Assembly: GCA_000004695.1 (NCBI GenBank)
Contig: CM000151.3
Coordinates: forward strand, 5,632,001 to 5,696,000
DNA length: 64,000 nt
Origin: Dictyostelium discoideum
Lineage: Eukaryota
Direction of reading: 5' to 3'
Shown: piece after piece, positions 1 to 23,916 of the stretch
Layout of the letters: each line of letters starts with the position of its first letter
Position numbering within the stretch: the stretch's first letter is position 1
The notes under the pieces: model-generated
What the model was told of the DNA's origin: nothing
The model's database searches: none
The model's input: the letters and a program-made list of their open reading frames with translations, nothing else
Translations under genes and position numbers: made by a program

Positions 1-3000
1 TTGAAAGTAATGAAAGTTTATTTTGTGCCAATTTTTCATTTTCAATTTGGAATAGTTTCTTTAATAATGGTGATTCAATTTCAATTGGTTTTGAAATTGA
101 ATCAATTGATTTTCTATCGATTGAATAATTACTTGGAGAGAATGATAACCAATCATTGAAATTTTCAATTGCTAATGATTTCTTTTGAATTTGTTTTTTG
201 TTAAGTTTTTGATTCTTTTTTAATTTATCTTCTAAAATTGTAGCAGCACCAGAATGTAATACCAATGGTGGAATATCTAATTCATTTTCAATTTGAGTGA
301 AAATATCATGTAATGGTTGAGCTAATACATTCTTATATTTAATGGTTACTTTTGCTAAATTTCTATGAGATACTTCAATATGTTGTTTTAAACGTTCATA
401 TTGAGTTAACAATCTATTATCATCCCATCTTGAGAGTCTAATGAATTCTAAAGCTTTATCTTCGATTGGTTTAATTGATTTTGCTAAACGATCTTCAAAT
501 CTTGAAATGAAATTCTCGAAATATTTGAAAATATTATAAATAATATCTGAAAGTTTTTGTTTATAATTTGTATTTTTAGAGGTACCAATTAATTTAATTG
601 TTGAATTTAATTGTTTGTAGAAAGATTTCAATAATTCAATACGAGTGAGGAAATCACCTAAACTTGAAGAATAGAGATATTGTTGAAGTGTATGGAAATT
701 CTTTGATAGATTTTCATCCTCCAATTCTGGTGATGATGGTTCATCATTAATTAAATCATAAAGAATGAACCAAGATTTCAATGCTTTTACCTCTGCTTCT
801 TTCTCTTGTGATTGGAAAATTGATGGCCATGATTCAATTTCTAATTTTCTCCAACGTACAATTAATGAAGAAATTTCATTCAAATGATTTTGAATTGATA
901 CTGCTTTACTTGCAAATGATTCCCATTCTAAAGATTTACGTAAGAGTAATTCTAAACCAGTTAAAATCTTTGCTAATGGATCAGTTGCTGGATAGGTCAT
1001 TAAACGATCAATTAATTTAACCATAAGGGTAAGATTTGCTTGTTCAGGATATTCAACCAATAATTCGAATACTCTCTTTCTAAATGAAATTAATGGTTCA
1101 CGAATAATTCCAATTTCAGAGATATTTGAATCACGATAAATGTTGTAGGTCTTCTTTTGGTGAATTACATCCACGACTTGATTATCACCATCATCATCAT
1201 TGATACCTTTAGATTTCTTGTAGAGATAAGAACTTGTTTTTAAGAATCTAAACTTTTCATCCAATTTACTATAGGTAATTAATGATGGTGGACGAATTGA
1301 GAGTGTTTCTTTAAGATTTGATGCAGATAAAATATGTGAACCCAATGATAATTGATCGAATTCCATATCACCTGATCTTTGATTTAAAATTTTCATTAAA
1401 AGGTAACTACTTGAATAAAACAATTGGAATAATTCAGATCTGTCTCTATCACTAAGTGTCCATTGTTGTTGTTCTTTTGGAATTGGAATACCATCTAAAT
1501 GTTTAAAGATATCCCTATGAATTGAGCATAATTGTAAAATCTCTTCATTATTAATTGATGATTTGAAAAACATTGAACCATCTTCTGATGTTAAAACATT
1601 TGATTCATTATTCTCTTTATCTTTGTTTTCTTCATCATTATCATCATCAATTTGATTCTCAACAACATTTGCAACTTCTAAATCTTCAAAATCTTTATAG
1701 AAATTTGGGAATGAAGTTAAGAAAACTTTTTCATCCTTTTCTTCCTTAGTTTCCATCTTATGAGTTTGAACTTTATATTTAAATTCTTGGTTCTCTAATT
1801 CTTCTTTCTTTCTTTTCTCTTCTTCTTGGAATCTCCATTCTTGAACAAAGATTCTAAATATTGAATCGATAGCTTCTAAATTATCAACATCTAAATAATT
1901 TGAATTTGAAAGTTGACTATAAATTTGACAAAGTGATGAACGTAATAATAATCCAATTACTTTAAAGTTTTGTAAACCACCATTACAATTATCTTGATTA
2001 GTTCTTTGATTAAATTTCATCATATCTTTAATTGAATCTAATGTTAATTTATCTAATAATATATTATTTGATGTGGTGTTGGTGGTGGTAGTAGCGGTAG
2101 TAGTAGTAGAAGTTGTAGTTATTTTAGAATTTATATCAACACTATTAATTCTTGGGAATTGAGTTAATGATAATAAAACTTTTTGAATTTGTTTTGTTAT
2201 ACCCTGATTACCACCTAATTTATTATCTTGAACTTTTTGTTTAAATGAAACTGACATCATTCTTAAACCAGATTTCATTTGATAAACAGCAGTAATAATT
2301 GGTACAATAATATCACGATATCTTGAATAGAATTTCTTTTCACAAGATTGAATGAAATGATTTGCTTTCTCTTGCCACATTTGTTCAGTTGATAATATCA
2401 TTTGATTGTATGATGAATTTGCAGAAGTGTTATTTTCTTGTTGTTGTTGATTATCACCTCCTTCTGATTCAACTTCTAAATTAAATTCATTTTTAACTTG
2501 AGATAAATCTAATTTTGAAATTAAGTCAATGATTTTTTCAATATTTGAAAAATGATTTGAAAATTGTGAAACATCACGATATAACTCTTCAAATTGTGAT
2601 GGAATTGGACGAAGTGTAATCTTTTTAGAATCTAATGCTAATTTCTGATCGATTGATTGTTTCTTTTGTACCAATTCATCAATTACTAAACTTGTACCAT
2701 CTTTACCAGTATATTGTTTTTCAATAATTGTTCTAATTTCAATTTCATCTTGTAATTGTTTTGAATGTTCTTTAGAGTATTGTAAAATAACATCATACTT
2801 TTGAGTTGGATCGATTGAACCTGATGGAACAAACATAATTAATCTAAATGTATTCAATAATAATTGAAGTCTACCAAATGTTGATTGTAATTTTAATTCA
2901 TCTTTATATAATACTTTATCATCTAAACATAATAAAATATCAAGACATGGTAATAAAAGTTGTTTTGATTTTTCATTAAATGATTTATCATTTGATTGAA

Positions 3001-6000
3001 TTATTAATTCTTTAATATTTTCAATTAATTCATCAAAACCTATATCTAATATTTCCAAGGATGACGATGATGATAATAAATGTTCACCAATTAAAGCAAC
3101 ATTTGACAAAAGTTGATGTTTTTTATGTTCATCATTATTAAATGATTTATAGAAACTTGTAATTGTTGATAATAATAAAGCTATTGTTTGTTTAATTTGA
3201 TATTCAAAAGATTCAATATTTGAAACATTTGAAGAACCATCAGCACTTGTTAAATGTTGAATGATTTGATTCAATTGTTCAATCTTGACTGGTACATCAG
3301 CAATACTAACATATTCCCAATCACATGTAAGATAGAAAGAGAATACAGTTTGAATATTTTGGAATAAACGTGGTGGACCATATCCAAATCTAATTGAATC
3401 ATAAATATTAACTTTACTACTACCATTATCGAGTGAAGCTGCGGCATCATTCTTTGATAATCTATATTTGTATTGTGGTAATGAATATTTACCAACATGT
3501 GAAATATCATTGAATGCATTATTCCATTGACTTGAATTATAAACATAAAGAATTGAATGAATAACTGATTGGAGTTCAATTATACCAATAGAAGCTTGTT
3601 CTTGCTCTTGTCCTTGTTCATCTTTTTCTTGGTTAGTTGTAACTTTTTCTAAATAATTATCAATCATCCAAATTAATTTTTGATAAAATGCTAAATGATA
3701 TAATGATCTTGGTATAGTTGATGATTTATATTTGTTTACGATATATTTTAATTCATCAATTATTGATTCAAATATGGTAATGATTGATTGATTCATTTTA
3801 CCATTTTCAATATCCATATGTTGTAACATTAATAATTTAACCAATTCAGAGATTACAAAAGTTTCTTTCAAATGAAGTGAATGATCAATTAATGGAGAGA
3901 TTGAAATGACTTGATGTTTAATTGATAATGGATCGAAATGAATTGATGTTGCATCACTAATCATAGAGTCATTTGAAATATCACTATTATCAAAATTTGT
4001 TGAAACTGGATTAAATGTTGAATTTAATTCAAATTGTTTTTGTTTTTCAATTAATTGTTTTAATTTATCGGATAAAGTTTGTGGTACCAATTCTAAGTTT
4101 GTAAGGAATTCACTAACACGATCCAACTCTTGTTGTTGTTGTTCTTGATTTTGATTATCAGAATTTAATTGATAATTTGCCCAATATAAAGTTGAAATTG
4201 CTTCAATTAAAGTTTTCTTCCAATCTTCATCGATTGCATAACTAGAATGTTTAATTGGTGATTCATTCTTGTTGAAATTGTATTGAACCTTTTCAAGAAT
4301 ACTAAGGAATTGACTATCCAATTGAACCAAATGATTTGATTTCATTACCATTGGATAACCACCAACTTTCCATAAACGATTATTTGAATTATCATTATTA
4401 TATTGATTTAATCCACTTGAGATCTTATCAATTAAAACTTGTAAACCAGTATTAATTAATAATGGTGATTCTGATTTTGATGTTAATGTTGTTAACTTAT
4501 TAATCTCTTTATAAATCCATCTCCAACGAATTATAAATTCACCCAAATTAAATTGATTTGATGGTAAATTAAATGTTGAATTCCAGAAATTATTTTTTAA
4601 TAAAATTAATTGATTAATAATTTGAATAGTTGAAAAAGTTGATTGTTGTTGCTCTGATGATGATAATTGAATTAACCATTGATCAATTTGTTCATCTAAT
4701 GATTTGAAAAGACGATAAATCATTGAAATAATATCTTGATGTGGTAATAAATCTTTACTCATCATTTTCTTTGTATAAGCTAATGATAATAAAATTACAG
4801 GTATTGATTTAATTGATTTAACTGAAAGTTGTTGACTTGCATTACCTTGTTGAACTTGTTTTAAGAATTTATTATATTCTTTCTCTTGTTTTGAACTTTG
4901 AATGAATAATGATAATAAAGATTTAATAATTTCCATATCATTTAATAAAACTTGATTAAATAAATCTTTAATTGGAATCATTGATTCAGAGCCGCCTGCT
5001 TCTTTAGTAATATAATTATCAACTTTTTCTTTAATTAATAAAAATAATGAATCATTATTTTTCCATTGATGACCTTGATAAATTAATAATTGTTTTGAAT
5101 CAATGAATGATAAATTAATCATTGATAGTAATTGTTCTAATCTTTTTTCAAAATCTTTATAACATGTATGATTGAATAATTGTTTCATACATGATATTAA
5201 TGTTGTTAATAATTGATTAATTGGTGAATCTTTTTCATTTTGATCCTTTAATGAATTTAAATATAAAACATAATTTTCATATTGTGATGAATTAATATTT
5301 TCAATTAGGAATTTTGCTGAAATCTTATAATTTGATTCATCTTGTTGTTGTTGTTGTGATGATGATGATGAAGATGATGATAAAGAATTCATTAATCTCT
5401 TTAAATAATATTCAAAGAATTGATAATTCATTTTCATTGTTGTTGAAATTGAATCAGTAACATAATCTTTACCTTTGATAAAGTGTGGATATATACCTAA
5501 AACTGTTTGATCTTCACATAGGATTGATTTGATTGCAGATTCATTGAAAATTGAATTAAAGATATTTGTAACCAATTGACGTTGAGTTAAATGTCTACGT
5601 GGACGAATGTAAATTTGTTCCATTGAATTACGAATTGAATTTAATAGTGAAAAACCTCTTTGTAATTGATCAAGTATTAATTTACCCCAATATAATAATT
5701 GTGAGAGTGTACATGGATTTTCAATTGTTGATGAAAGTTGAGTGAAAATTTGATTATGGAAATCAATCATTGTACGAGTTAAACTTTCCAATGGAATACC
5801 TAATGCAGTTAACAATTGTTGATTATCAAAATTATTTGATGGAGTTTCCATCAATGATAATTGGTCGGCTGCCATATAAATTTCAATACCACGATTTCTC
5901 ATAGCACGTGAAATCTCACCTTTTTTATCATCCATAGTTAAAAAGATACGGAAATTTGGATGTGGTTTAACAACTTTAACTTGACCATCAACCATACCAC

Positions 6001-9000
6001 GTTCGTTTAACATTAAAACACCGTCTTGTTCCAATAATGGATTCAAACGATCCAATACTGTTGGATTACAGAAATTAACATTATCAATTAATATCCATGC
6101 ACCAGTTTCCAATGCTTTAATTAATAAACCATCAATCCATTCAAAACAACCTGTAACACTTTCTTTTTCAATTGATTTAATACGTTGAATTTGTTGTCTA
6201 ACATCTTGAATTCTATTTAAATGCTCTTGATTATTATCTAAATTAAATTGAATTGATAATTTCTCCAATGCATCAACAATTGTTGATAAAAGATCCAATT
6301 GTTCAATTGTAATTAAACCAACACCACCACTACCAATGGTTGCACCATCTTGTTGAATTTGTTGTTGAGTTTGTTGAGTTTGTTTTTTAAATAAATTCCA
6401 AACTTGATGAATATCTTGAATTGATGAAATACAAGTTTTCATTAAATTATCATCATTTGAGTTAAAGTAAGTCATAATATGAGATGATACAATTGTGATT
6501 AATGATGATACTGATGATATGATACGTTTTTGATAACGTACTAAATCAATTTGTTCAAAACCACCTAAAATCTCTGTTGTATCAACTGATGAATTCATAG
6601 AGAATTCATAGAGTGTATTACCAGTTAATTGAGCTAATAAACGAATGGATGAAGTTTTTGAAGTTGATGTTGGACCAATTAAAATACTCATCCAATTCAT
6701 TTCAATACATTTCATAATATTCTCTAATGGATTTAATAAACGTTGAAGTAATTGAATATTTGATGAATTATCTAGTACACTACTATCAAATGATGATGCA
6801 CCACCATTTTGGACTCTTGGTAAAATTGATGAACCAATTTGTAAATATTCTGGTGAAATTGAGTAATGTGGTTGTTTATCGTAATTACAAATTGTTGGCA
6901 TCATATCAATAGATTGATCATTTTCATCACCACTGGTGGTGAAAACTCTTTTAAAAATTGTTAAAACATGTTCACGATCTTGAAGTGTTCTCATTCTTTG
7001 AAGATAGATTAAGTCAATGAATCTGGCAGGATTTGAAATTGATGTTGGATCTTTAACTATTAAATCACACCATCTAAAAGTATCACGAAGATTGAATTCC
7101 CATGGTGCACCTTTACGTGCAAATTTATGTTCAATCATTGATTCTTTAAACATTTGATGATTAAATTCAATCATACGTTCAATGGTTTTTGATGGTATAG
7201 TTGGATACATTGCTGTACTGATGAATAGAAGATCTTGTTGATTCAATTGGTCAATGAATACTTGAGTGAAACGATTAAGGAATGACTTTGGTAACCCTTT
7301 ACGACCACCACCTTGATGAAGTGGATTTTGGCAAGCGAAAACACGGAAATTTGGATGACATGCAAATGTTTTACCCAATTCTGGAATGTAAACTTCTGAA
7401 CGATGATCTAAACAAGAATTTAAACCCTCCAAAACGGTTTGTGATGCAAGATTTAATTCATCCAATAATACCCAACTACCATTACGTAATGCCTCTAAGA
7501 AAACACCATCTCTCCATTCAAATTGACCACCTGTACCACCTTCAACTGGTAAATCACTACCTAAAAGATCCATAATATCAGTTTGCTCTGAAAGATTAAT
7601 ACGAACGATTTGATTTCCCGATGCATTTGCAATAGCTGTAATCAATGAAGTTTTACCAACACCTGGTGAACCTTCCACTAAAATAGCACGTGGTAATTGC
7701 ATACCTCTAAGAACACGTTGTGCATTCTTACTAGTTGTTGGTGCTGATAAACTAAATTGAATCTTTGGTACATTTGATTCACGTACTGGAATATAAAATG
7801 GATGAATACCAAATCTATTCTCTTCTTTAATAATATTAGCAATTGATGATGACAATGATGATGATGATGATGATGTTGATAATAATTCTGTTTGTAATTT
7901 TAATTTCTCATCTTGTGATTCAATTTGATCAATTAAACGAATTAAACATGCCTCACGTAATTTTAAACCTTCACTTTCAGATGAAGAATTTGAACCCATA
8001 CCAAAACCATCTAATAATACTAAACAAGCACCATGAATATAAGATTCATTTGGTGAGAGTAATTGTTTATCCATACATAAATTCATAAAACTAATCCAAG
8101 ATAGAATATCACGTAAACTAATTACACGTTTATTCTTTTGAATCATTAATAGATATTCGATAAAGTTTAACATTAAACTACCTTTACCCTTTAATTGAGG
8201 ACTTGTGAATCTTTCTTCAATAATTTGTAATAAATCTTGATGACTACTAATTGCAGGTACCCAAATCTCAGTGAAACGATTTCTCATAGCTGGTGAAAGT
8301 TCTTTCTTACCAAAATCACCACCTGGATTCATTGTTGCTAAAATTCTAAACTCTTTATGACCTCTTAATTCTTCGATTTCGACACCACCTTTTTCAGCCA
8401 ATACTAATAATCTACTTGGTTCTAAAACTGAATTTAATCTTTCTAAAACTGCATCCTCTGCTAATGAAATTTCATCAATTAAGAAATAATCACCTTGCTT
8501 CATTGCTTCAACCAATGGGCCATCAACCCAATTAAATAATGAACAATAGGAACTATAAGTTTTATCGATTTCAATAGCTAATTGTTTCAATTGTTCAGTT
8601 AATAATGATGAATTTGAAACTTGTTTCCATGACTCAACAATTAATCTCTCCATAATCTCTTTAATTGGTAATTCATCGATGTTGTTATTCTCTTGTTCAA
8701 GTTTATATAGATTTAATTGAGATAATTGATTAAAATATTGTTTAACTAATGAATATAATTTTGATAAAACTTGATCACGACCTCTAACTGGACGCAAACC
8801 ACCAATGAAATCAGCAGTTTCAGTATGTTGATGACAATTGAGTATATGAAGTTTTTGTTTATTTAAAATTGAATATAATTGACAAATTGTAGTTTTAGAA
8901 CAACCAGTTTCACCAACTAATAAAATTGGTTCTTTATGTTCCAAACATTTACCAACCAAACTAAACAAACGTTTCATTGATCTTGTCCAAACGATTTTCT

Positions 9001-10757
9001 CTAAATGATTTGATTTTGATAATTCTGAATCATTCTCACTTAATAATTGTAAAAGTTTTAAAAACTCTGGTTTATCATCACATGAATAGATAGATTCGAT
9101 ATCTAATTTAATCTTTAAATGTTTTTCAATCACTTGTTTAATTATTAATTTCTCTTCATCTTTTCTTAAACGTTCAGCCAAGAGTTGGTAACCTGCAATA
9201 CCCAATTCTTCATAGGATGAAGGTTGACGTTCTGCCCAACGGAACAAATCACGGAATGTGATTGCACCATGTTTACCTGCGAAAACTTGGTTACTACCTT
9301 GTCTATTCAATTGAAGTTCTTTCATAATTAATACTAATTTCTTGCAATAGGATGGTGGTAATGCGCAACGTTTACAAAGAATCTCTTCAAGTTCATCCTC
9401 TGGAATATCGTCTACGTGTAATTCTAAGAAACGATTTCTAAAAGCACGTGATAACACTTTTCTACCACCATAAAGACCTGGTGGATTTTGAGTTGCGAAT
9501 AACATAAAGTGTGGATGTGGTCTAACGACTTCTTGAGTCTCTGGAATGAAAAGCTCTCTATTGTCATCCAATAGACGATTTAATGCCTCCAATACTTCAG
9601 ATGGTGCTAAATTCAACTCGTCCAATACTACCCAATAACCTTTACGTACTGCTTCCACTAAAATACCCTCTTGGAATACAAGTTTACCCTTATCATCACT
9701 TATATATTGACCAAGATATTCTTGAAGATCGGTATGTTCATGATTATTGATACGAATGAATCTATGACCAGTTCTAATTGCTAAATATTCAACCATTGAA
9801 GTTTTACCACTACTAGTTGGACCTTGTAAAAGTATTGGATGTTTACGTGATACCAATACTCTTGCAATATTTGAAAGATTAGATTTAATACTTGGTGTTA
9901 AAATATAATGAGTTGGTATAATTGGTTTCTCATTACCACATTCAATCCAAAACTGTTCAATTTTTACATAACTCTCTTCTGCGTTATTATTATTATTATT
10001 TGTTGTTGATGTTGGTGGTGGTCTATTTAATGGTTGATTATAAAGTTTAACTTCACCTTTTTTTATATATTGTTTAATTAATTGTTCCATCATTGGATAA
10101 GATGATTTATTTAATTGAGTAAGGAAACTCATACTTATACCTTCGAAAAGTGCACGTTGGAAACCAAATGATTTTGTAACATGTTTTGTATAATTCAATG
10201 CACGACTAAGTGTACGTAATGAAAAGATTGGTTTTTGATTTGACCCATCCAACATCTTATTTTGAGCGTCTTGTTTAGTTTTTAAATAAAATTCAACGAT
10301 ATCTTCAATTGGTGGATTTGGTACTAAATTTGATAAAACTGTTTTCACTACTAAACATAAATCACCCCTATTATCCAAATCATCGACATAGTACTCTGTG
10401 AATCTATTACGAATACCAGGTGGAAGATCCTTTTTACCAATATCAGTTGGAGGATTCATACATGCGAAAACCTTAAAATTTGGATGTCTTTCAACTGGTT
10501 CAACTTCACCTTTCTCTGTTAAAGTAATTGAACCACCATCGAATAAACCACTTAAACTCTCTAAAGTTTCTGAAGTTGCTAAATTCATTTCATCTAATAA
10601 TACCCAATAACCTTTACGAATACAATTTACTAATGAACCTTCAACAAAACTAAATGCAAAATTATTTTTTGATTTTTCAAATTGAATTGTTAATTTCTTT
10701 ATATCATTTGATAATTTTATCCATTTTTCTTTAACTTCACTTCTAATTGTACGTTTC

Positions 10758-10813
<56 letters not shown>

Positions 10814-13103
10814 TTCTTTTGTATTATTTGTTGTTGTTTGATCATCTTTTAAAACTTTATTTTCAACTAATTTAATTGCTTTATTTAATAAAGCAATGAA
10901 TTGTTTCCAATTTTTAGAGATGAAAGCTTTATCAATTTTCTCTAAGAAATCAGTATTATTTGATTCAGAGAAAGTCTTTTTAAACATTGAATCGAATCTA
11001 TTCTTTAGAGGTAAACAAAGTAAACGCATTTCTACTGGTTTAAAACCACCAATTAAATCTGAACTATCTGATTGTTGATTAAGATTCAATACTACCAACT
11101 TTTGATTTAATTGGTCGGCAATGTATTGAACTACCGATGTTTTACCAGTACCAGTTTCACCAACTAATAAAATTGGTTCATTAAATTGAATTGAGATTGA
11201 GATCTTTTCCATTAATCTCAATGAATTCATTGTGTGTGCAAAAACATTACCATGTTTAGTTACACCGGAATCTTGTTGACTTTGTTCAGTTGTGAATCTT
11301 GTATGTTTTTTACCATTTGAAATTTGAATTGAATCAGATTTCTCTAATGATTTTAATTTTGCACGACCTGTTGAAACTGATTCTTGGGTGATTATAATAG
11401 ATGGTTTATAAAGTTCAACATAGTAATTGATACGATCACCAGTTAATTCCCAAACTCTACCAATAACTTGAGTCAATTGTTTTCTTAAATTCTTTTTACT
11501 AATCATTGAACAAAAACAATCTAAAGCTTCAACAAAAACAATCTCTTGCATTGTTGATGTTATAATTTGTTGTGAAACATTTGTTAAATGTAATCTTTGA
11601 TTACAACGTCTAATCCACTTTATTAAATCTCTTGATGATATAAATCTACTTGATGGTATTATAAATTTCTCATTACTATTATTATTATTATTATTATCTG
11701 TATTATTATTGTTGTTTATATTATTTACATTTGCAGTATTTGCAATATTTGCAATACCAGCAACTTCATCAGTTGGTGATATTGAGATTGATTGATTTGA
11801 AATTACACGTAATAATAAATTAAAAGTTTCAATGAATTTTGAAATCATAACTGTTAATTGTGGGAATAGAGTTAATAAAACTTGTTTCATTTCAGTTGGT
11901 GATAAAGCTTCAATTACAACTCTAGTCCAAAGATGTGAGAGAATATTTGCATTTTGATCACGACTATGCGATCCAAACAAAGTTTGTGTTGCAAATAATT
12001 GGAAACCATTGGATGCTTCAATCACTTCGCCACGACCTGGTATGAATAAAGTTCTATTCTCTAATAATGGTATTAACACTGACAACACTTCAATTGGTGC
12101 TAAATCAATATCCTCAATTAAAATCCATCTACCTTCTTGAACGGCTTGTGTGAGTGCACCAGCTTGCCATTTAAATTCACCCGGTGTATCAGAGGTGATA
12201 TAAGTACCTAACAATACCTTTGAATCGGTTTGATCACCTAAATGAATTCTAATTATATTATCATTACCAGTGATTCTTGATAATTCTTCAATCATTGTTG
12301 TCTTACCAGAACCTGTAACACCCTCAATTAAAATTGGTTTACCTAAACCAACTGCAATTGCCAATGAATTTAAATTTTGTGATACAGTATTTGTATAAAC
12401 TAATTTTTGTACTTGTTCATCTTCCCCTTCTCCCTCTTGTTGTTGTTCTCCTCCTTTTTTTGATTTTACACTTGAACCATGTCCAATTTGTTCAAACTTT
12501 TTAAATAATAAAATACCACAAACATCAACAATTGATTTATGTAAATCTTGTTTTTGTATAAAAATATTTGGATATTTATTAATTAATTCTTCATCTTCTT
12601 TTTCTTCTTCTTGATTATTATTTATATTTTCTTTTTTATTGTTATTGTTATTATTATTATTTAAAAATAATTTTGATGATTCTAAATTTAATAATTCAGA
12701 CTCAATTTGAATAATTTGATTATGGTATTGTTTAAATAATGGTTTAATTTGAGTGATTTGATGATCAGGTACATTTAATACCATTGACATTGATTTAATG
12801 ACATACCATGTTATACGTTGACTTTTAATCTCTAATAATGAGAATAATGGTGTCCAATCCCATAATGATGAGAATAAACTTTTATTAAATGATAATAATC
12901 TAAAACAACTTTGAACTAATCCTAACCATCTCTCTTCTTTTTCTTCAGTAAAGTTTTTACATTGATTTATACTATCAAAAATATTTATACTATTATTACT
13001 ATTTTGGTGTTTTTTATAAAATTCAATTACAAGACTAAATAATAATAAATAAATAATAAATAATAATAAAAAAAAAAAAAAAAAAAAGAGGGTTAGAATA
13101 TAA

Positions 13104-13147
<44 letters not shown>

Positions 13148-13601
13148 TGAATTACCTTTGTAATTGTGGGGTTGTTGGTAAAAGTTGGGAAAAAATTAAT
13201 GTTATATTCTCAATTTCGGGAATATTGAAGGCATTTGTTTTTGTTTGTTGTTAAATTGATTTTTTCTTTTTTAAAAAAAATGATTGTAATGATGGTGATA
13301 ATGATGATGAAATTTTACTACCATTTTGAATATATCTTGAAACCAAATCAACTAATAATGGGCTAAATATATTTGAGATTAAGGAGGGATATTCTGGTTT
13401 ACTCATTAATAAATTTGAAATCTCTTCAACAATGAATAATTTATCTTGTGATGTAAATTCATTTTCTTTTTTTTTGAAAATTTGTTCAAAACTTTTGAAA
13501 TCTTGAATAATTGTTGATGATGAGGATTCATTTTTGATTTTTGTTAATTCTAATTCTAAGGCTTTAATAGCTTTAAATATGTTAAATTTAAATTTATACA
13601 T
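1..13601 (-). CDS. mdn1: Midasin (MDN1/Rea1) AAA+ ATPase, ribosome-biogenesis factor; 3'-partial, CDS runs off the window start. One uninterrupted minus-strand exon from about 13034 to 1. A 5' exon with the ATG at 13601 (ORF 13251..13601) is joined through one or two small introns between about 13035 and 13310; a strong CAAAG|GTAATT donor lies at 13155/13156 and a TTATTTAG acceptor at 13035/13036.
   Basis: Minus-strand translation gives repeated AAA+ P-loops typical of the six midasin AAA protomers, for example LGKPILIEGVTGSGKTTMIEELSRITGN (about 12330), ILLVGETGTGKTSVVQYIADQLNQKLVVLNLNQQSD (about 11150) and AILVEGSPGVGKTSLITAIANASGN (about 7650). The N-terminal exon (…SPLLVDLVSRYIQNG…, then …SLWDWTPLFSLLEIKSQRITWYV…) aligns with the human MDN1 N-terminus (PLLLDLLERN…, ELWDWSVCVPLL…). 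No in-frame stop occurs anywhere from 13034 to 1, which is why this ORF is absent from the stop-to-stop track. Confidence 0.9.
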
Positions 13602-13875: not shown

Positions 13876-14908
13876 AAAAAATGAAAACGAGTTTGAGGAT
13901 TTTAAAAAAACGAAAGGGGTTTTGAGGATTTCAAAAAACCGAAAAAAAAAAAAAATAAAAATAAATAAAAAATAAAAAATTTGAAAAAAAAAAATTAAAA
14001 ATAAAAAAAAAAAACGATTGCAAAAATAAAACAATAACATATAATATACACTAGCTGATAAAAAAAAAAAAAAAAAAAAAATTAGTAGAAAGTCCTTTAG
14101 TAGTTTTTTTGATTAATTTGACCGACCAAGATTCACACATTTTATTATTTTTTTTTTTTACTTTTTTTTTTTTTAAATTTTTTATTTTGGGATTCTTGGA
14201 AATTAATTTAATCATCCCAACAGAGAGTTAAAAATTCCAAAAAAAATATTTCAAACTTTTAACAAATAATAAAAAATAATTTTAATTAACAAATAATAAA
14301 AAAATAAAATAATATAAAATAAAATAAAATAAAATAATATAAAATTAAATTAAATTAAATTAAATTAAATTAAATTTTTATTTTTTTCAAACAAATTGAT
14401 TTAATTTAAAATTTTTTTCCTTTTTTTGTGATATTGGAATTTATATGAAAATTTTATTTGATTAGTTTATTCAATTGGACTTGAATTTAAAATTATTTTC
14501 CTTTTTAAAATCGATTTCATTTTATTTTAAATTTAATTATTTTTGTATTTTAGAAAAAAAAATTTTTTTTTAAGTTTTTAAATTTCCCATATTTGATTTA
14601 AACTTAAAAATAAAAAAATAATAATAAAAATTAATATAAAAAAAAAAAATTAGCTTTGCAAAAAAAAAAAAAAAAAATTAATATTTTTTTTTTTTTTTTA
14701 ATTTTTTTTTTTTTAATTTTTTTTTTTTTAATTTTTTTTTTTTTAATTTTTTTTTTCATTTTTATTTTTTTTTTTTTTAATTTTTTTTTTTTTCAATTTA
14801 TTTAACATACATACCCTATCACATACACATAATTACATATACACCTTTTTACATATATCATTTTTTTTTTTTTTCACAAAAAACTTAAACTTATATAAAT
14901 AATATACA

Positions 14909-16070
<1,162 letters not shown>

Positions 16071-17981: not shown

Positions 17982-18202
17982 TAATAGATATATTATAAAA
18001 TAATTTTATAAAATAATTTTATAATATATATAAAAAAAAACCTTGTTTAAAAACTAAAAGAAAAACCAAATATAAAGATATCTGAATAAATAATAGATAA
18101 AATATAAATTACAAGTTATTGAAATGAAAGAAAAAAAACAAATAAATAAATAAAAATTATTGTGAATGATTTTATTATTTATTATTATGATTGTTGGTAA
18201 TA

Positions 18203-20737
18203 TTATTTTCTACAAATTGAAATTGCTGAAAAGCAACCAACATTTTCATATGATTTTTGAGTCCTTGTTTTGACATAATTATATAAAATTGGTGTTAAAC
18301 AAGAAAATGTTGGATTTTTAAATAAAACAGTAGATTTTATAATTTCAGTGGTGGTTTTAATTGTTGTTTCAACTGTAGTTCTAATACATGATGAAGTTGT
18401 TGTTGTCACTGTTGTTGATGTAGTTATTAATGGTTCAATTGTCTTTGGTAAAAATGTATAGTTTACTATGTCACCGTCGATGATTTGAATTTTATCTATA
18501 AATTCTTTTTTTACTTTATTTTTACTTGCAATATATGTCGAAATATTTAATTGAAATTCATTATTATTAAAAAATTGGTTTAACAAATTCCACATTACTA
18601 AATCTGATCCACAAAGTTCATTATTTGATGAATATAAAAACTTAAGTGTTAATGCAACTGTTTTACTTTTGTCATTTATAATTTCTAAAATTTCATCTTT
18701 TAAAAGTTTGATTAAATTAATTTGAATTTCCTGTACTTGTTTCTCATTCATTGATGTTTCTATTGATGTAGGATTGTTTAAATTTAAATAGCCATATTCA
18801 TTATCATACAATGTAAATGCATTTGTTTGGTATCCAACATATGTTTGCCTTTGTTGGAAATCTTTTTGAAGAAAAAAAACAGTTTGGGTCAAATATTCAT
18901 TTTGGTTTGATGATTTTGGATTATTTTGAAATTCTAAACCTGGAAAATAAAATTCGAATAATAATTTATAAATTTTCAATGTATTCTGGTACATATCAAC
19001 TGTTGAATATCTAACAGGAGTTGTTTCATTTTGACATAACATATTGCCTAATAAATAATTAAAGTTAAGATAACTTTGAATATAATTTTTAGGACCAAAA
19101 ACTAAATTTGAAAATTTAATTTTTGATAAAATAAAACTATTCCAATGTTTGCAAACCAAATGTAAACTTTGACAAAATGAGAAAAACTGTTCATCACCTT
19201 TTGAATAATCAATTGAATAATTTAAAATTTTTAAAGTTAATAAATTTGAAAGTTTAAAACTGTTTACTGCTATCTTTGTTTCAACCACATGTTTATGATT
19301 TAATTTTTGTTTTTTTGATACAATATATGGTATTTGAATAAATGATGGATTATTGGAAACATTTGAATTTTCATTTGTAATAATAATCACTGAAAATATG
19401 AGTGAGCTCTCATACTCACTACGATGATTCAAATTGCATGATCTAAAAATTCCATGATTTCTTAAATTTTGATTTGAAAATAACAATACATTTGAAAGGT
19501 TTATTTCATTAATATCATATACATTGAAAATTATATTGTGTGATTTAATGAGTGATACCATTTTTATATTATTTGTTCCATAATGATTTATTAATGAGTC
19601 GTACATATATAAGTCCATACCACTTAATTTTTCAATCCAATCAGAGGTTGTATACAAATCGTTCAAAATAATTCCTATTTGGTTACCTTTGTATATAAGT
19701 TTATCAAATTCAATTATCACCATTTTCATTGCAATATTTCTAAAACCAATACTTTCTATGGATGGTGATCCCAATCGTTGCATTTTAAATGGATCCATTG
19801 TAAACATATCAAATTCTAGTAAACCAAAATATGGGTTTCGGTTGTTTGAATTTATAAATACTGTAATATCATTATCAGGTAAAACGCAATACTTTATTGA
19901 GTATTTATTATAATCAAAAAACATACCACTCTTTGAAATAGATATTTTTTCAAATAATTTTGATCGATTATGTCTTATTTCAATTTCATCACCATCATAT
20001 CCTATTGGAACAAATAATTTACCCACAAATCTTTTTCCATTTTCAACAGTTACCCATTTATTAATTATTTGATTTTCTTGTTGTATTCCATCCAATTCAA
20101 CTCCATTTGTTGTGATATTATTGTTTGTTTGTTTAAATATATGTAATTTTATAAAATCAACTTGTCTTTGGTTTGTACTGTACATACTATCTATTGAATA
20201 TGTTACCCAATAACCATCCTTATAATTAGGAATAACCAAATCATAATGATTCTCAATGATTTTATAATTGTCATTTTTATTTATCGAAGTTGCAATCTTT
20301 AATAGTTCATGAAAATTTGGACTAAATATTTTACCACATTTTGTAAAATTAATATAAATGTATGGATTTATACAAAATATTGTTTTGTTTTCTTTTATTT
20401 TTTTTTCTTGTCCTTCTATATCTTCATGATCTTCATCATCATCTTCTTCATAGTCGTCATCGTATATAATTGGAGTATTAATAAAACTATCAATTGTGGT
20501 TGCCTTACTACTATTTCTTGAATTATTATTATCGAATTCATCATTATCAACAGTTTCTATACAAAAGGATACTTTATTTGGGAAATAAAGAAAATTCATT
20601 AAACTATTTATTTTTATATTATCAATGCTATTATCATATAAATCAATTAAACTAAAAATATTTGAATGATTTTTTTTTTTATTTATTGAATCTATAATTG
20701 AATCTCTTATTTTAAGATAACTATTTAAATAATCCAT
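18203..20737 (-). CDS. Large orphan protein, 844 aa; acidic DE-rich patch and Thr-rich C-terminus; no recognisable domain.
   Basis: Single uninterrupted minus-strand ORF, in a divergent pair with the GIY-YIG gene. Codon usage is less AT3-biased than neighbouring housekeeping genes (CGA, TTG, GGA, CCT, GTG present). Confidence 0.55.
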   Translation of the reverse strand: MDYLNSYLKIRDSIIDSINKKKNHSNIFSLIDLYDNSIDNIKINSLMNFLYFPNKVSFCIETVDNDEFDNNNSRNSSKATTIDSFINTPIIYDDDYEEDDDEDHEDIEGQEKKIKENKTIFCINPYIYINFTKCGKIFSPNFHELLKIATSINKNDNYKIIENHYDLVIPNYKDGYWVTYSIDSMYSTNQRQVDFIKLHIFKQTNNNITTNGVELDGIQQENQIINKWVTVENGKRFVGKLFVPIGYDGDEIEIRHNRSKLFEKISISKSGMFFDYNKYSIKYCVLPDNDITVFINSNNRNPYFGLLEFDMFTMDPFKMQRLGSPSIESIGFRNIAMKMVIIEFDKLIYKGNQIGIILNDLYTTSDWIEKLSGMDLYMYDSLINHYGTNNIKMVSLIKSHNIIFNVYDINEINLSNVLLFSNQNLRNHGIFRSCNLNHRSEYESSLIFSVIIITNENSNVSNNPSFIQIPYIVSKKQKLNHKHVVETKIAVNSFKLSNLLTLKILNYSIDYSKGDEQFFSFCQSLHLVCKHWNSFILSKIKFSNLVFGPKNYIQSYLNFNYLLGNMLCQNETTPVRYSTVDMYQNTLKIYKLLFEFYFPGLEFQNNPKSSNQNEYLTQTVFFLQKDFQQRQTYVGYQTNAFTLYDNEYGYLNLNNPTSIETSMNEKQVQEIQINLIKLLKDEILEIINDKSKTVALTLKFLYSSNNELCGSDLVMWNLLNQFFNNNEFQLNISTYIASKNKVKKEFIDKIQIIDGDIVNYTFLPKTIEPLITTSTTVTTTTSSCIRTTVETTIKTTTEIIKSTVLFKNPTFSCLTPILYNYVKTRTQKSYENVGCFSAISICRK

Positions 20738-20963
20738 TTAAATTTTTTAAAACTATTTTATTACAAAAAATTAAATATTAAAAAATTAAAAAAATAACTT
20801 AAATTTTTTTTTTTTTATTAATCAAAGCAAATACTTACGTTAAAAAAAACATATATATATTATAATAAATTGAATTTTGGAAATTTTATTTATTTATTTT
20901 TGGTGGTAATACCACATGTGGGAAATAATTAATAAAAAAATACAAAAACAAAAAAAATTAATT

Positions 20964-21007
<44 letters not shown>

Positions 21008-21319
21008 ATTGGAAAAATTTAGGGTTTGACCATACAAAACTTTTTTTAAATTAATTATTATTTTGTTTTACAAATTTAGTAAATTTAAATAATTTTTTGA
21101 GTGAATAAATAAGCTATTTATATAATACAAAAAATTGTAAATTTTACATTTCAAATAAACATTCATTGCTTTACAAATTTTTCACTGCAAAAAAAAAAAT
21201 AAAAAAAATAATTAAGCAATGTATGTATGTATTAAGTGAAAAAAAATTTTATGAGTGGAATGTTTAAATAAAAATTAAATATAATATAATTTATTTAAAC
21301 ATAATTTTAATATTTTAAA

Positions 21320-23053
21320 ATGCTCAATAATTATATTCACAAATTAGTTTATATTTTTTTTTTTTTTTTTGTTTCATTGAAAGTTTCATATTGTAATTTG
21401 CATTATTTAGGATTAGATTGGAATCAAAATGTTGGAGGTAAATGGATTTGTGTTGATAAAAATTCACAACCTAATATCAAAGATTTTTTTTATAAATATA
21501 ATGGTGGTTTTCATAAGTATATTTATAAAACTTATAATTTTTCATATCCCAATAAACCAACAGGAAATGGTGTATATGTTTATTTTTCCCAAAATGGTGA
21601 AATAGCCTATATAGGAAAATCGTGGCAGAAAAAATTTAACGGGATTTATGATAGGATTGCAGCCCATCAAAATAAAGATTTGTTTGGCCAACCAAAAAAT
21701 AAAGATGAAATTCTAAAAGAAATAAATGGTTTACTTTCACATGATGAGATTCAAAATATTGAAAAAAGAGAGAAAATTACTAAATATTGTTACCTACCAA
21801 TTCCCAATAACTCTCCAAGAGAATTAGCATATTATATAGAAGGTAGTTTACTCTCAATTTTCCATTCTTCTATTAATTCTTGGCAAAACGGAGGCCCTTC
21901 TGGTGATACGGGTATTTTTAATCGTTTTAGAATTCCAATAATAAGATATACCACAAATGAATATTCTATGTTGTATACTGCAAATGATGAAAATGTTAAT
22001 AATTACTATTCTGTATTTGAGAATCCGGACTTTTATAAAATTTTTTATTACTTCAAGAATTATCAAAAAGTAGAAGATGATTTGGAAAATTGTGAACAAG
22101 AATTAAAAATAAATAAAAATGAATTGAAACGAGAAATTTCGTCAATCCAAAAATTTTTGAAATCCACCAATTTGGAGGATGCATTCCATAATTTTAGAAT
22201 TGGATATATAAAGGGTCACTCGAAAAACAGTAATCAAGCAGTACCAGGGGTTACTTTTACTAATATGCTGTCAGCTCTGTTTTATAATGTTAATTTGTTG
22301 CCAAAGTCTAATGAAAATGTTGAAATGCTTATTAAAATTTTAGAAAAAGTACAAAATGATGGAAATAAAAATAAAGCTAATGAAGTTTTTTGTCCTCAGG
22401 AAAAATCTTTAAATTATAAAATTCAAACTTTAGAAAAGAACAATGAAGATGCTAGAATAGTAAATAATCAACTTAATTCGACGATTAATTCAAATGAAAT
22501 AAAAAACAAAGACATAATTTCAAAACAAGAAAATGAAATTATTACTTTAAAAATTGAAAATCAAAAATTAAAAAGTAACATTACTCTATTATATGGTGAA
22601 ATTTCAATTTTAGAAAAACAATTAAATGGTAACATTACTCAATTAAATGGTGCAATATCAATTTTAGAAAAACAATTAAATGGTAACATTACCTTATTAA
22701 ATGAAGAAATTTCATCATTGAACTCAATAATTACTGATTATGAAAGAAATAATACAATTTTGACTCATCAAGCAGAGCTTGATTCATTTGAATTAAAATC
22801 ATATGATCAATGTATTATTGATAGAAATAGATACAAAATGGAATCAGAAAAATCACCATTTAATTTAAAACAATACCCATCGTTGGTTAAAATTGATGAT
22901 GTTTCACAATGTCCAAAATATAAATGCTTAAAAAGAAAATCATTAAATGAGTGGACTATTGGACTAAACATCCCAGCTTTTTGTAGAGAAAGTCGATATG
23001 ATTGTTCGTTGTGTTACAAATACATAGAATGCAGTTTTTCTGATGAATTTTAA
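21320..23053 (+). CDS. GIY-YIG nuclease-domain protein, 577 aa. Layout: N-terminal hydrophobic signal/anchor, GIY-YIG domain (about aa 80–200), coiled coil with tandem about 20-aa repeats, Cys-rich C-terminus.
   Basis: Motif GVYVYFSQNGEIAYIGKS-(x12)-R-IAA-H followed by YIEGSLLSIFHSSINSWQNG matches GIY-x10-YIG…R-x3-H…E…N of GIY-YIG endonucleases (I-TevI/SLX1 type). N-terminus is MLNNYIHKLVYIFFFFFVSLKVSYC. Repeats: EISILEKQLNGNITQLNGAISILEKQLNGNITLLNEEISSLN. C-terminus: CPKYKCLKRK…CRESRYDCSLCYKYIEC. Codon usage is strikingly atypical (frequent TCG, CAG, GGG, AGG, GCC, GGC, CCG, ACG, CTC). Confidence 0.6.
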   Translation: MLNNYIHKLVYIFFFFFVSLKVSYCNLHYLGLDWNQNVGGKWICVDKNSQPNIKDFFYKYNGGFHKYIYKTYNFSYPNKPTGNGVYVYFSQNGEIAYIGKSWQKKFNGIYDRIAAHQNKDLFGQPKNKDEILKEINGLLSHDEIQNIEKREKITKYCYLPIPNNSPRELAYYIEGSLLSIFHSSINSWQNGGPSGDTGIFNRFRIPIIRYTTNEYSMLYTANDENVNNYYSVFENPDFYKIFYYFKNYQKVEDDLENCEQELKINKNELKREISSIQKFLKSTNLEDAFHNFRIGYIKGHSKNSNQAVPGVTFTNMLSALFYNVNLLPKSNENVEMLIKILEKVQNDGNKNKANEVFCPQEKSLNYKIQTLEKNNEDARIVNNQLNSTINSNEIKNKDIISKQENEIITLKIENQKLKSNITLLYGEISILEKQLNGNITQLNGAISILEKQLNGNITLLNEEISSLNSIITDYERNNTILTHQAELDSFELKSYDQCIIDRNRYKMESEKSPFNLKQYPSLVKIDDVSQCPKYKCLKRKSLNEWTIGLNIPAFCRESRYDCSLCYKYIECSFSDEF

Positions 23054-23252
23054 ACAAATTTAAGCGCACTTTTTGTAATTTAAAATATTTTTATATGGGA
23101 GCCCATATAAAATTAATATGTATAATTTTCAAATTTTGAAAAATGCTAAAACTTGAATGTTTTTCACAATATATTTCTCAATCACTCCAATTAAACCATA
23201 GTTTTATTCAAAATAAATTAATAATTAATATCAACAATAAATAGATTTTTTG

Positions 23253-23283
<31 letters not shown>

Positions 23284-23916
23284 GGTTTTTTAAAACTGAT
23301 TTTAGGCTTTTTATTATTTTTTAAAAAATTCTATTATATGGTTATATATTTGTTTTAACTTTTAAATTTTATCTTTAATTTATTTTTTATAAATAATCTG
23401 AATAAAAATAATAATTTAATTATAATTAATACTATTAAAATGAGTTGATAGAATTAACTATAAAAGGATAATTAATATTATTAATTTAATAATTTTTGGA
23501 GTTATTTATAATAATTGAAAATATTTTTTTTAATAATATATAATTCATAAAAATTAATTAATAATACTATTTAAATTAACAATTAATAAAATATTGATAC
23601 CAATAAATGAATGTAATGATATATTAAAATTAATATCAACACCACTATTAAATGATGATATAAATGGTTTATTTTTAATTTAATATAAATTTTTTTTTTT
23701 TTTTTTTCCTTAAAAAAAAAAAAATTATAAATATATATTATTTATTTTGAAGTTTTATTTGAAAGGTAAAATGATTAAAAAGTTATAATAAAAGAAATGA
23801 ATTGATTGGATTATTTACATTAAATTGTTTAATAAAATATAAATAATAATTTTTTTACCTATTATTACTATAAATTATTACAATTTTAATTTTTTTTTTT
23901 TTTTTTAAAAATTATT

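Follow-up and report, generated by a model that had tools for sequence, protein, structure and literature searches.

In the yeast WHO/HO elements, and with the free-standing homing endonucleases of phages, a nuclease gene lies by a host gene that is abnormally divergent in the part next to it, and fragments and duplicates of this host gene occur nearby. Another relevant system is the tgrB1-tgrC1 allorecognition locus of Dictyostelium discoideum, a head-to-head gene pair which was described as a 'hypermutable hotspot' (PMC12745789). Its authors raised the possibility that a nuclease bound to the locus causes the hotspot by cutting it repeatedly, and left the cause open (PMC12745789). In this study, we analysed a head-to-head gene pair of the same organism that lies in a stretch of 64,000 nucleotides (contig CM000151.3, positions 5,632,001 to 5,696,000; hereafter the window, position 1 being its first letter). 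One gene, on the minus strand at 18203-20737, encodes a protein of 844 amino acids (aa). The other, on the plus strand at 21320-23053, encodes a protein of 577 aa with a nuclease-like GIY-YIG motif. This locus was not mentioned in the report on the tgrB1-tgrC1 hotspot (PMC12745789), and a literature search on the identifiers of both genes and proteins found nothing. Our favoured explanation, which we hold with a probability of roughly 55%, is that the two are a native, dispensable, intronless gene pair situated in a local hotspot of birth-and-death and deep divergence that is confined to the discoideum clade.

Layout, divergence and rearrangement of the gene pair

Exact-sequence look-up identified the two open reading frames (ORFs), whose spans include the stop codon, with the AX4 proteins DDB_G0275785 (844 aa; XP_643462.1, Q553N1) and DDB_G0275783 (577 aa; XP_643463.1, Q553N0), the latter named 'GIY-YIG domain-containing protein' in UniRef. 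Both genes belong to the chromosome 2 record of 8.48 Mb. Since the unbroken ORFs are identical to the deposited AX4 proteins, both genes are modelled as intronless, in agreement with an earlier reading made from the DNA letters (the sequence-only reading), and the immediate neighbours, namely a 305-aa gene, a 110-aa gene and an ArfGAP gene, are spliced. ORFs of such length are not random, because about 9% of codons would be stops at 22% G+C; by our base-composition estimate, 844 open codons would arise by chance with a probability of about 1e-35. The two 5' ends face each other across an A/T-rich spacer of 582 bp (20738-21319, no strand assigned), which confirms the head-to-head order and the distance of about 580 bp that had been noticed. 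The long poly(A) tract that had also been pointed out is present as a run of A38 at 20968-21005, but it is unremarkable: the window contains 46 runs of A or T of at least 20 nt, the longest of 61 nt.

The comparison covered D. discoideum and two sister lineages, L001 and L002, both 'D. cf. discoideum' assemblies. They come from a ten-genome study based on Nanopore and Illumina reads, in which the isolates M4B and S6B were treated as possible cryptic sister species (PMC12745789). In a word-indexed search, the two genes were found only in D. discoideum and these two assemblies, and the lineage restriction thus held. Within this clade, the block with the gene pair diverged 3-5 times as much between lineages as its flanks, and up to about 10 times as much at synonymous sites. 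Mismatch was 18.4% in the block vs 3.7% in the flank for L001, and 15.4% vs 5.4% for L002. Mismatch profiles of 200 bp and 500 bp placed a hyper-divergent core against L001 at 19300-22500 (no strand assigned): in 200-bp steps, the values were 4-5% at 18.1-19.3 kb, 22-25% up to 22.3 kb and 3.5% at 22.7-22.9 kb, and the maximum of 27.6-27.8% was found at 20900-21299, that is, in the spacer. The peak has a smooth shape and covers the shared spacer, where between-lineage divergence is greatest, and the 5' halves of both genes. Against L002, mismatch was elevated over the whole of 18000-23063. Elsewhere in the window, a second rise of the L001 mismatch (10-18%) was seen at 14000-14999 in very A/T-rich, gapped non-coding DNA, for which alignment noise is a likelier explanation than a second hotspot.

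The flanking genes had dS values of 0.03-0.11 and dN values of 0.007-0.04. By the Nei-Gojobori method, dS was 0.17-0.21 with dN/dS of 0.50-0.66 in the 844-type genes, and 0.35-0.58 with dN/dS of 0.30-0.42 in the 577-aa gene. In the latter, dS against L002 rose up to 0.75 in the middle and to about 1.1 at the C-terminus, where dN/dS was 0.09-0.10 despite this dS. Among its regions, aa 1-75 had a dN/dS of about 1.45, the GIY-YIG-like part one of 0.4 and the middle one of 0.2-0.3. The 3' end of the same gene (22500-23053) showed a dS of 0.045 vs L001 and was saturated vs L002, a contrast indicating a recombination breakpoint near 22.4-22.6 kb and separate histories of the two gene halves.

Collinearity of L001 with the window extended over 11.3-32.9 kb, and the gene pair was syntenic. 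Two deletions affect the nuclease-like gene of L001, one of 4 bp within the GIY-YIG-like module and one of 1 bp close to the stop codon; the frame of its 844-type gene is disrupted at three or more places, one of the disruptions being a tandem duplication of about 48 nt. In L002, the pair was inverted as one unit relative to the ArfGAP flank, and after it come a C-terminal fragment of 227 aa and two more 844-type copies, one of them frame-shifted. The 844-type gene therefore amounts to three copies plus the fragment in this lineage, duplicated without the nuclease-like gene, which itself has lost 7 bp and is interrupted by an in-frame TAA at the codon of E168, its last 410 codons remaining open. 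The exons of the flanking midasin (MDN1) and ArfGAP genes were intact in the same sister assemblies. Among themselves, the three L002 copies differed by a dS of about 0.05, and from the window copy by 0.196-0.207; being young and equidistant from the latter, they give no direct support for retained old paralogues. The synteny that had been proposed as a check on the pair was thus found across the discoideum clade, which is the scope of this result.

The gene models deposited for the sister assemblies and for a second D. discoideum assembly (L015) conceal part of this damage. Models of 557 aa (L001 10001-11745), 796 aa (L001 6891-9355) and 489 aa (L015 4001-5553) span true frameshifts by short invented introns or alternative starts, and as a result the model proteins are without the YIG-Arg-His segment or the true N-terminus.

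Some further features lie at or beyond the edges of the pair. Past the stop codon of the 577-aa gene, a segment of about 485 bp (23064-23548, no strand assigned) has no counterpart in L001, where about 100 bp occur, or in L002, and homology to both sister lineages ends at 23063 (blastn). The G+C-rich palindrome TATATGGGAGCCCATATA (23092-23109), close to the end coordinate given in the sequence-only reading, was considered as a boundary signal and dropped because it is absent from L001 and L002. Beside the inversion breakpoint of L002, positions 11667-11984 hold a 105-aa ORF of low complexity, rich in His, Gln and Leu, and a (TATTT)n-like microsatellite, neither of which occurs in the window. 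At the other side of the window, positions 1-13195 on the minus strand form a single open frame of 4398 codons that runs off the window start and corresponds to the midasin gene of L001 (MDN1, with AAA_5 domains).

Family ties and architecture of the two proteins

The sequence-only reading had regarded the 844-aa ORF as an orphan, and scans against Pfam, NCBIfam, PHROGs and PADLOC gave nothing for it. Remote homology nevertheless ties it to a dictyostelid family that combines an F-box-like motif with a 2-oxoglutarate (2OG)-Fe(II) oxygenase domain. In addition to the orthologues and paralogues of the intronless DDB_G0275785 in the two sister lineages, an exhaustive HMMER search with the 844-aa family profile against 1.84 billion representatives recovered three further proteins, from dictyostelids only. 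A 905-aa protein of D. dimigraforme matched the profile over its full length (E 4.5e-29), with 27.7% identity over the whole length (E 4e-44). A 567-aa protein of D. citrinum and a 514-aa protein of D. purpureum matched profile positions 495-583 (hmmsearch, E 6e-8 and 1e-7), and these two match PF13640 with 34.7 bits vs a cut-off of 27 (E 3.5e-8).

By BLASTP, the 844-aa protein and the D. citrinum protein share four significant collinear segments (E 2e-9 to 1e-4), and the former is concluded to be a tandem fusion of two partial family units. The first unit begins with an N-terminal module (aa 2-147; 20297-20734, minus strand; motifs 'YLKIRD' and 'IYI..CGKIFSP') that is common to the family and matches residues 62-193 of the D. 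citrinum protein (E 2e-8). Then follow the degenerate remnant of the oxygenase core (aa 191-330; 19748-20167, minus strand), recognised in a multiple alignment with the relatives, and the first copy of a 'LY..L.G.DL..WN' motif (aa 333-397), which matches residues 427-491 (E 1e-4). The second unit starts at an internal F-box-like motif (aa 495-560, LLTLKILNYS...LHLVCKHWNSFIL; 19058-19255, minus strand), with aa 501-576 matching residues 12-87 (E 2e-9). It closes with a C-terminal module (aa 686-843; 18209-18682, minus strand) that contains the second 'LY..L.G.DL..WN' motif and the terminal 'ENVGCFSAI' and matches residues 440-567 (E 3e-5). Where the relatives have H-x-D (H-I-D), the multiple alignment places N207-I-T209 of the 844-aa protein, and the stretch that holds their distal His and Arg is deleted. 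With the iron ligands and the 2OG-binding basic residue gone, the oxygenase core is catalytically dead, and any activity must be non-catalytic. As read from these alignments, the 844-aa protein, the 'large partner' of the sequence-only reading, is a two-unit fusion from a native dictyostelid family and has lost the iron-binding residues.

The fused homologue of D. dimigraforme has other neighbours, and nothing related to the 577-aa protein occurs within 10 kb of it; the oxygenase-bearing relatives of D. citrinum and D. purpureum are found at yet other loci. The D. purpureum scaffold GL871029.1 (85 kb) holds two family paralogues, DICPUDRAFT_17103 and DICPUDRAFT_17092, with consecutive accession numbers. 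Paralogues of this kind, if arranged in tandem, could have been the source of the fused architecture.

No significant Pfam match was obtained with the whole 577-aa protein. The nuclease motif that had been noticed is there (G84-V-Y86, ten residues, Y97-I-G99), but the domain stays below the Pfam threshold. To characterise it, a query profile of the Dictyostelium domain from three lineages was compared by hhalign with a reference profile of ten GIY-YIG domains, comprising I-TevI, E. coli UvrC, Cho, YhbQ and six annotated phage endonucleases (the I-TevI sequence matched phage records at 100%). The match had P = 7e-4, with GVY, YIG, Arg and His in register; R112 and H116 aligned with R27 and H31 of I-TevI, with a 3-residue insertion between YIG and Arg. 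In the column-shuffle control, none of 300 shuffles (mean 11.7, sd 2.4, max 21.0) reached the real score of 22.3, which was obtained with a match of 62 aligned columns. E174, N186 and N190 are candidates for the metal-binding Glu and the downstream Asn, and they were placed by hydrophobic pattern, as the 32-column hhalign match ends before them. Y86, Y97, R112, H116, E174, N186 and N190 were invariant in all three lineages. Weak NCBIfam matches of the region were to the N-termini of three UvrC or DEDD-GIY-YIG models, and sequence and profile searches of the PDB returned no GIY-YIG chain and nothing relevant. Judged by profile alignment, shuffling and invariance, aa 76-200 (21545-21919, plus strand) is probably a divergent GIY-YIG module that fails the curated threshold, and we infer that the 577-aa protein is a nuclease or a nucleic-acid-binding protein.

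The rest of this protein is of mixed character. A leader at aa 1-25 (LVYIFFFFFVSL, then S-x-C; 21320-21394, plus strand) resembles a signal peptide and contains the only strongly hydrophobic segment (aa 9-20). Its length differs by +3 and +6 nt among the three lineages, so the frame is kept and the leader seems to be translated. The leader includes a run of T17 (21354-21370, codons 12-18, with FFFFF at aa 13-17), which is one T shorter in the second D. discoideum assembly, where the frame from the annotated ATG is broken. The missing T explains the deposited 489-aa model of that assembly; the difference is either an assembly error or a sign of a hypermutable tract that switches the N-terminus off. 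Further downstream, a direct-repeat search revealed three tandem repeats of 54 nt (22552-22713, plus strand) encoding the 18-aa unit LNGNITxLNGxISILEKQ, each with an N-x-T sequon. They lie within a predicted helix at aa 398-488, the sole segment with a predicted local distance difference test (pLDDT) score above 70 in an AlphaFold2 model. The protein ends with a Cys-rich module at aa 498-571 (C498, C531, C536, C555, C562, C565 and C571; 22811-23032, plus strand), which has no Pfam match and is the most constrained part.

Explanations for the hotspot

Four candidate causes remain for the divergence peak: deep coalescence, in which the haplotypes would be older than the splits between lineages; hidden paralogy accompanied by gene conversion; introgression; and a site where mutation or repair is locally intense. 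RIP-like (repeat-induced point mutation) or deaminase-like mutation was rejected because the transition/transversion ratio and the substitution spectrum of the block resemble those of the flanks. Relaxed protein constraint alone was rejected because synonymous and non-coding sites are also raised 3-10 times. We favour the explanation that the native pair lies in a hotspot of 3-5 kb, whose genes became duplicated, inverted, fragmented and frame-shifted in the sister lineages. Most likely, a dispensable locus would carry old haplotypes or paralogues that recombine, so that deep coalescence is combined with recombination or gene conversion while selection is diversifying or balancing. The 844-aa protein would then have a non-catalytic activity, such as an adaptor role, possibly of SCF type through its F-box-like motif.

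The sequence-only reading had also proposed a co-inherited functional unit. Hints of a functional coupling between the genes are the position of the spacer at the peak centre, the head-to-head adjacency in all three lineages, which persisted through the joint inversion in L002, and the joint decay in L001. On the other hand, the coupling is weakened by the duplication of the 844-type gene alone, by the lone homologue of D. dimigraforme and by the pattern in L002, and a strict functional unit is doubtful.

Several other points weigh against our explanation. Three lineages with one sequence each do not separate the four causes of the peak, and pseudogenisation in two of the three lineages fits a 'dispensable and decaying' locus better than balancing selection. 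PF12937 (F-box-like) gave 13-14 bits (E 0.04-0.09) in the 844-aa protein and the D. citrinum protein, in two of five fragments scanned, vs a cut-off of 24.3. Similarly, the isolated region of about aa 67-210 of the 577-aa protein matched PF01541 with 16.8 bits (E 0.009), under the cut-off of 22.6 bits. The structure predictions were unusable: the AlphaFold2 model of the 844-aa protein, from an alignment of five sequences, had a pLDDT of 34.3, and the single-sequence model of the 577-aa protein had a mean of 39.9, with strands at 85-89 and 95-98 and values of about 35-40 in the GIY-YIG-like region. Co-regulation, or divergent co-transcription from the shared spacer, would follow from the orientation of the genes. 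Outside the clade, the 577-aa protein was sought by word-indexed search and pattern scans, while the exhaustive search concerned the 844-aa family, so that remote relatives of the 577-aa protein may exist there. A word-indexed search with the isolated GIY-YIG-like domain came back empty and missed the known orthologues too, and was therefore uninformative.

The alternative that survives best, though we think it unlikely, is that the two are unrelated, dispensable and fast-evolving genes with an incidental adjacency. Their excess divergence would be hidden paralogy in a small ancestral array whose diverged copies were differentially kept or converted; the genes would be functionally unconnected, and diversity would not be selected for. 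In a compact genome, head-to-head pairs are frequent. The 844-type copies of L002, three and a fragment, multiplied without the nuclease-like gene, the D. dimigraforme homologue has no GIY-like neighbour, both genes carry disabling mutations in the sister lineages, and the dN/dS of the 844-type genes (0.5-0.66) would also be expected of such a pair. However, no old paralogue is visible, the L002 copies being young and equidistant from the window copy. Furthermore, the divergence forms a smooth peak on the spacer rather than blocks, the most divergent part is the non-coding spacer itself, and both genes were inverted jointly in L002.

A more far-reaching possibility, which we regard as improbable, is that the pair represents an active or recently active conflict element of a type new to amoebae. 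It would be either a free-standing nuclear GIY-YIG nuclease of homing type, whose action leads to co-conversion, or a pair that serves in recognition or as toxin and antidote and is kept as several ancient haplotypes across cryptic species. In its second form, which we consider equally doubtful, a linked toxin-antidote or self/non-self module would be held under balancing selection, with a nuclease-like effector and the F-box-like, dead oxygenase as its regulator or neutraliser, for example via degradation. This would agree with the survival of the head-to-head order and shared spacer through the inversion, with at least three deeply diverged haplotypes between normal flanks and with mosaic boundaries inside genes, with the joint disablement of both genes in L001 and with the lineage-restricted distribution. 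The polymorphic tgrB1-tgrC1 pair provides a precedent in the same organism (PMC12745789, PMC11088635). Yet interaction, toxicity and co-expression are purely hypothetical here, the F-box-like assignment is sub-threshold, and the reading rests on one sequence per lineage. In addition, L002 has intact 844-type copies next to its nuclease-like gene, whose N-terminus is broken, and null alleles in two of three lineages suggest dispensability.

In the homing form, to which we give even less credence, a selfish, free-standing GIY-YIG endonuclease, similar to the phage Seg proteins or the yeast WHO/HO elements, would cut near its own gene, and repair from diverged donors would co-convert the flanks and so produce the peak, the duplications, the inversion and the fragment. 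The hallmark GIY-YIG residues are intact and invariant, and from the 5' end of the nuclease-like gene the peak declines in both directions, as a co-conversion gradient would. The Cys-rich, basic C-terminus might act as a zinc-binding DNA-recognition module, and the structural instability is local and includes a 3' fragment of the neighbour gene. A locus-bound nuclease is, moreover, one possible cause that was raised for the tgrBC hotspot (PMC12745789). However, each of the three lineages has one copy of the nuclease-like gene, at the same conserved locus, whereas the amplified gene is its neighbour. In two lineages the nuclease module is the broken part while the remainder is open, and the signal-peptide-like hydrophobic leader is unexpected for a nuclear enzyme. 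The domain lies under the family threshold, and no relatives occur in the phage or viral collections scanned. The gene is free-standing, with no intron or intein, and the three lineages compared include no empty-site allele.

Several results bear on the acquired island and the domesticated mobile-element remnant that the sequence-only reading had put forward. Between 17.0 and 25.5 kb, the only repeats that a search detected were matches between A/T homopolymers; it revealed neither terminal inverted repeats nor target-site duplications. The relaxed A/T3 codon bias that had been claimed is marginal, since GC3 was 0.141 and 0.163 in the two ORFs, high values that still fall within the 0.067-0.170 of the 16 further long ORFs in the window. 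Codon usage was therefore typical. Neither protein contains transposase, integrase or reverse transcriptase domains in Pfam, NCBIfam and PHROGs scans, and the PHROGs, NCBIfam and PADLOC scans gave weak matches or none. Pattern scans found no viral relatives of either protein in 2.9 million viral contigs, and no relatives of the 577-aa protein in 185,579 prokaryotic genomes or in JGI metagenomes. A tblastn search of phage records found no relatives either, and the 64-kb window has no second copy of the block. A horizontally acquired island or domesticated transposable-element remnant, with the nuclease and a passenger gene, is thus largely refuted and very improbable, in spite of the distribution limited to the discoideum clade, the two intronless genes, the GC3 high within the local range and the break of sister-lineage homology 10 bp past the nuclease-like stop codon, because it has against it the missing terminal repeats and target-site duplications, the host-like GC3, the native family of the partner gene, the lack of relatives in the viral, prokaryotic, JGI metagenome and phage sets scanned, the lack of transposase, integrase and reverse transcriptase in the block and its single copy in the window. 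Within these searches, of which the exhaustive one covered the 844-aa family, the evidence speaks against both acquisition from outside and a bounded mobile element.

Taken as a whole, the observation behind the sequence-only reading was real and is partly confirmed, and its interpretation is partly supported: the island exists as one of sequence divergence and structural instability, not of acquisition.

Comparison with known systems

These results give a family context to two AX4 'hypothetical proteins', one a dead, duplicated relative of F-box-like/2OG-oxygenase proteins and the other a GIY-YIG-like protein of unusual architecture. They also indicate that gene models of sister assemblies conceal frameshifts behind invented introns. 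The 844-aa protein shares the N-terminal module, the F-box-like motif, 'LY..L.G.DL..WN' and the 'GCFSAI' end with the dictyostelid F-box-like + PF13640 proteins (D. citrinum KAN0018403.1, D. purpureum DICPUDRAFT_17092 and DICPUDRAFT_17103). In contrast to them, it consists of two partial units with an internal F-box-like motif, is without H-x-D...H and the 2OG-binding Arg/Lys, and lies at another locus.

Compared with the GIY-YIG superfamily (the N-terminus of UvrC/Cho, I-TevI, phage Seg, SLX1), the 577-aa protein has GIY-x10-YIG followed by Arg and His in register, then candidates for the later Glu, in an amphipathic helix, and for the Asn, and the predicted order beta-beta-alpha. It differs in that the module is sub-threshold, has a 3-residue insertion between YIG and Arg, is associated with no intron or intein, and is fused to a leader, a coiled coil and a Cys-rich tail. 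To our knowledge, no described member combines a leader, a GIY-YIG domain, a coiled coil and a Cys tail. With the WHO/HO elements and the phage homing endonucleases, the locus has in common a nuclease-like gene beside a divergent neighbour with fragments and duplicates. Unlike in those systems, the nuclease-like gene is a single copy whose module is decaying in the sister lineages, the neighbour is the amplified gene, and cleavage or mobility would be hypothetical.

By analogy, the closest described parallel is the tgrB1-tgrC1 hotspot. The two loci are on different chromosomes and their proteins are unrelated, the Tgr proteins being transmembrane proteins with Ig-like folds. There, dozens of genes are involved, against about 5 kb with 1-4 copies here, and a recognition role would be hypothetical for the present pair. 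However, both are head-to-head pairs of the same organism, and both show local duplication, inversion, fragments and pseudogenes in the same assemblies, mosaic genes with breakpoints and conserved syntenic flanks. If the peak is real at the population level, the present locus would be, besides tgrBC, a second hotspot of hyper-divergence and birth-and-death in Dictyostelium, small, tractable and with a nuclease-like gene.

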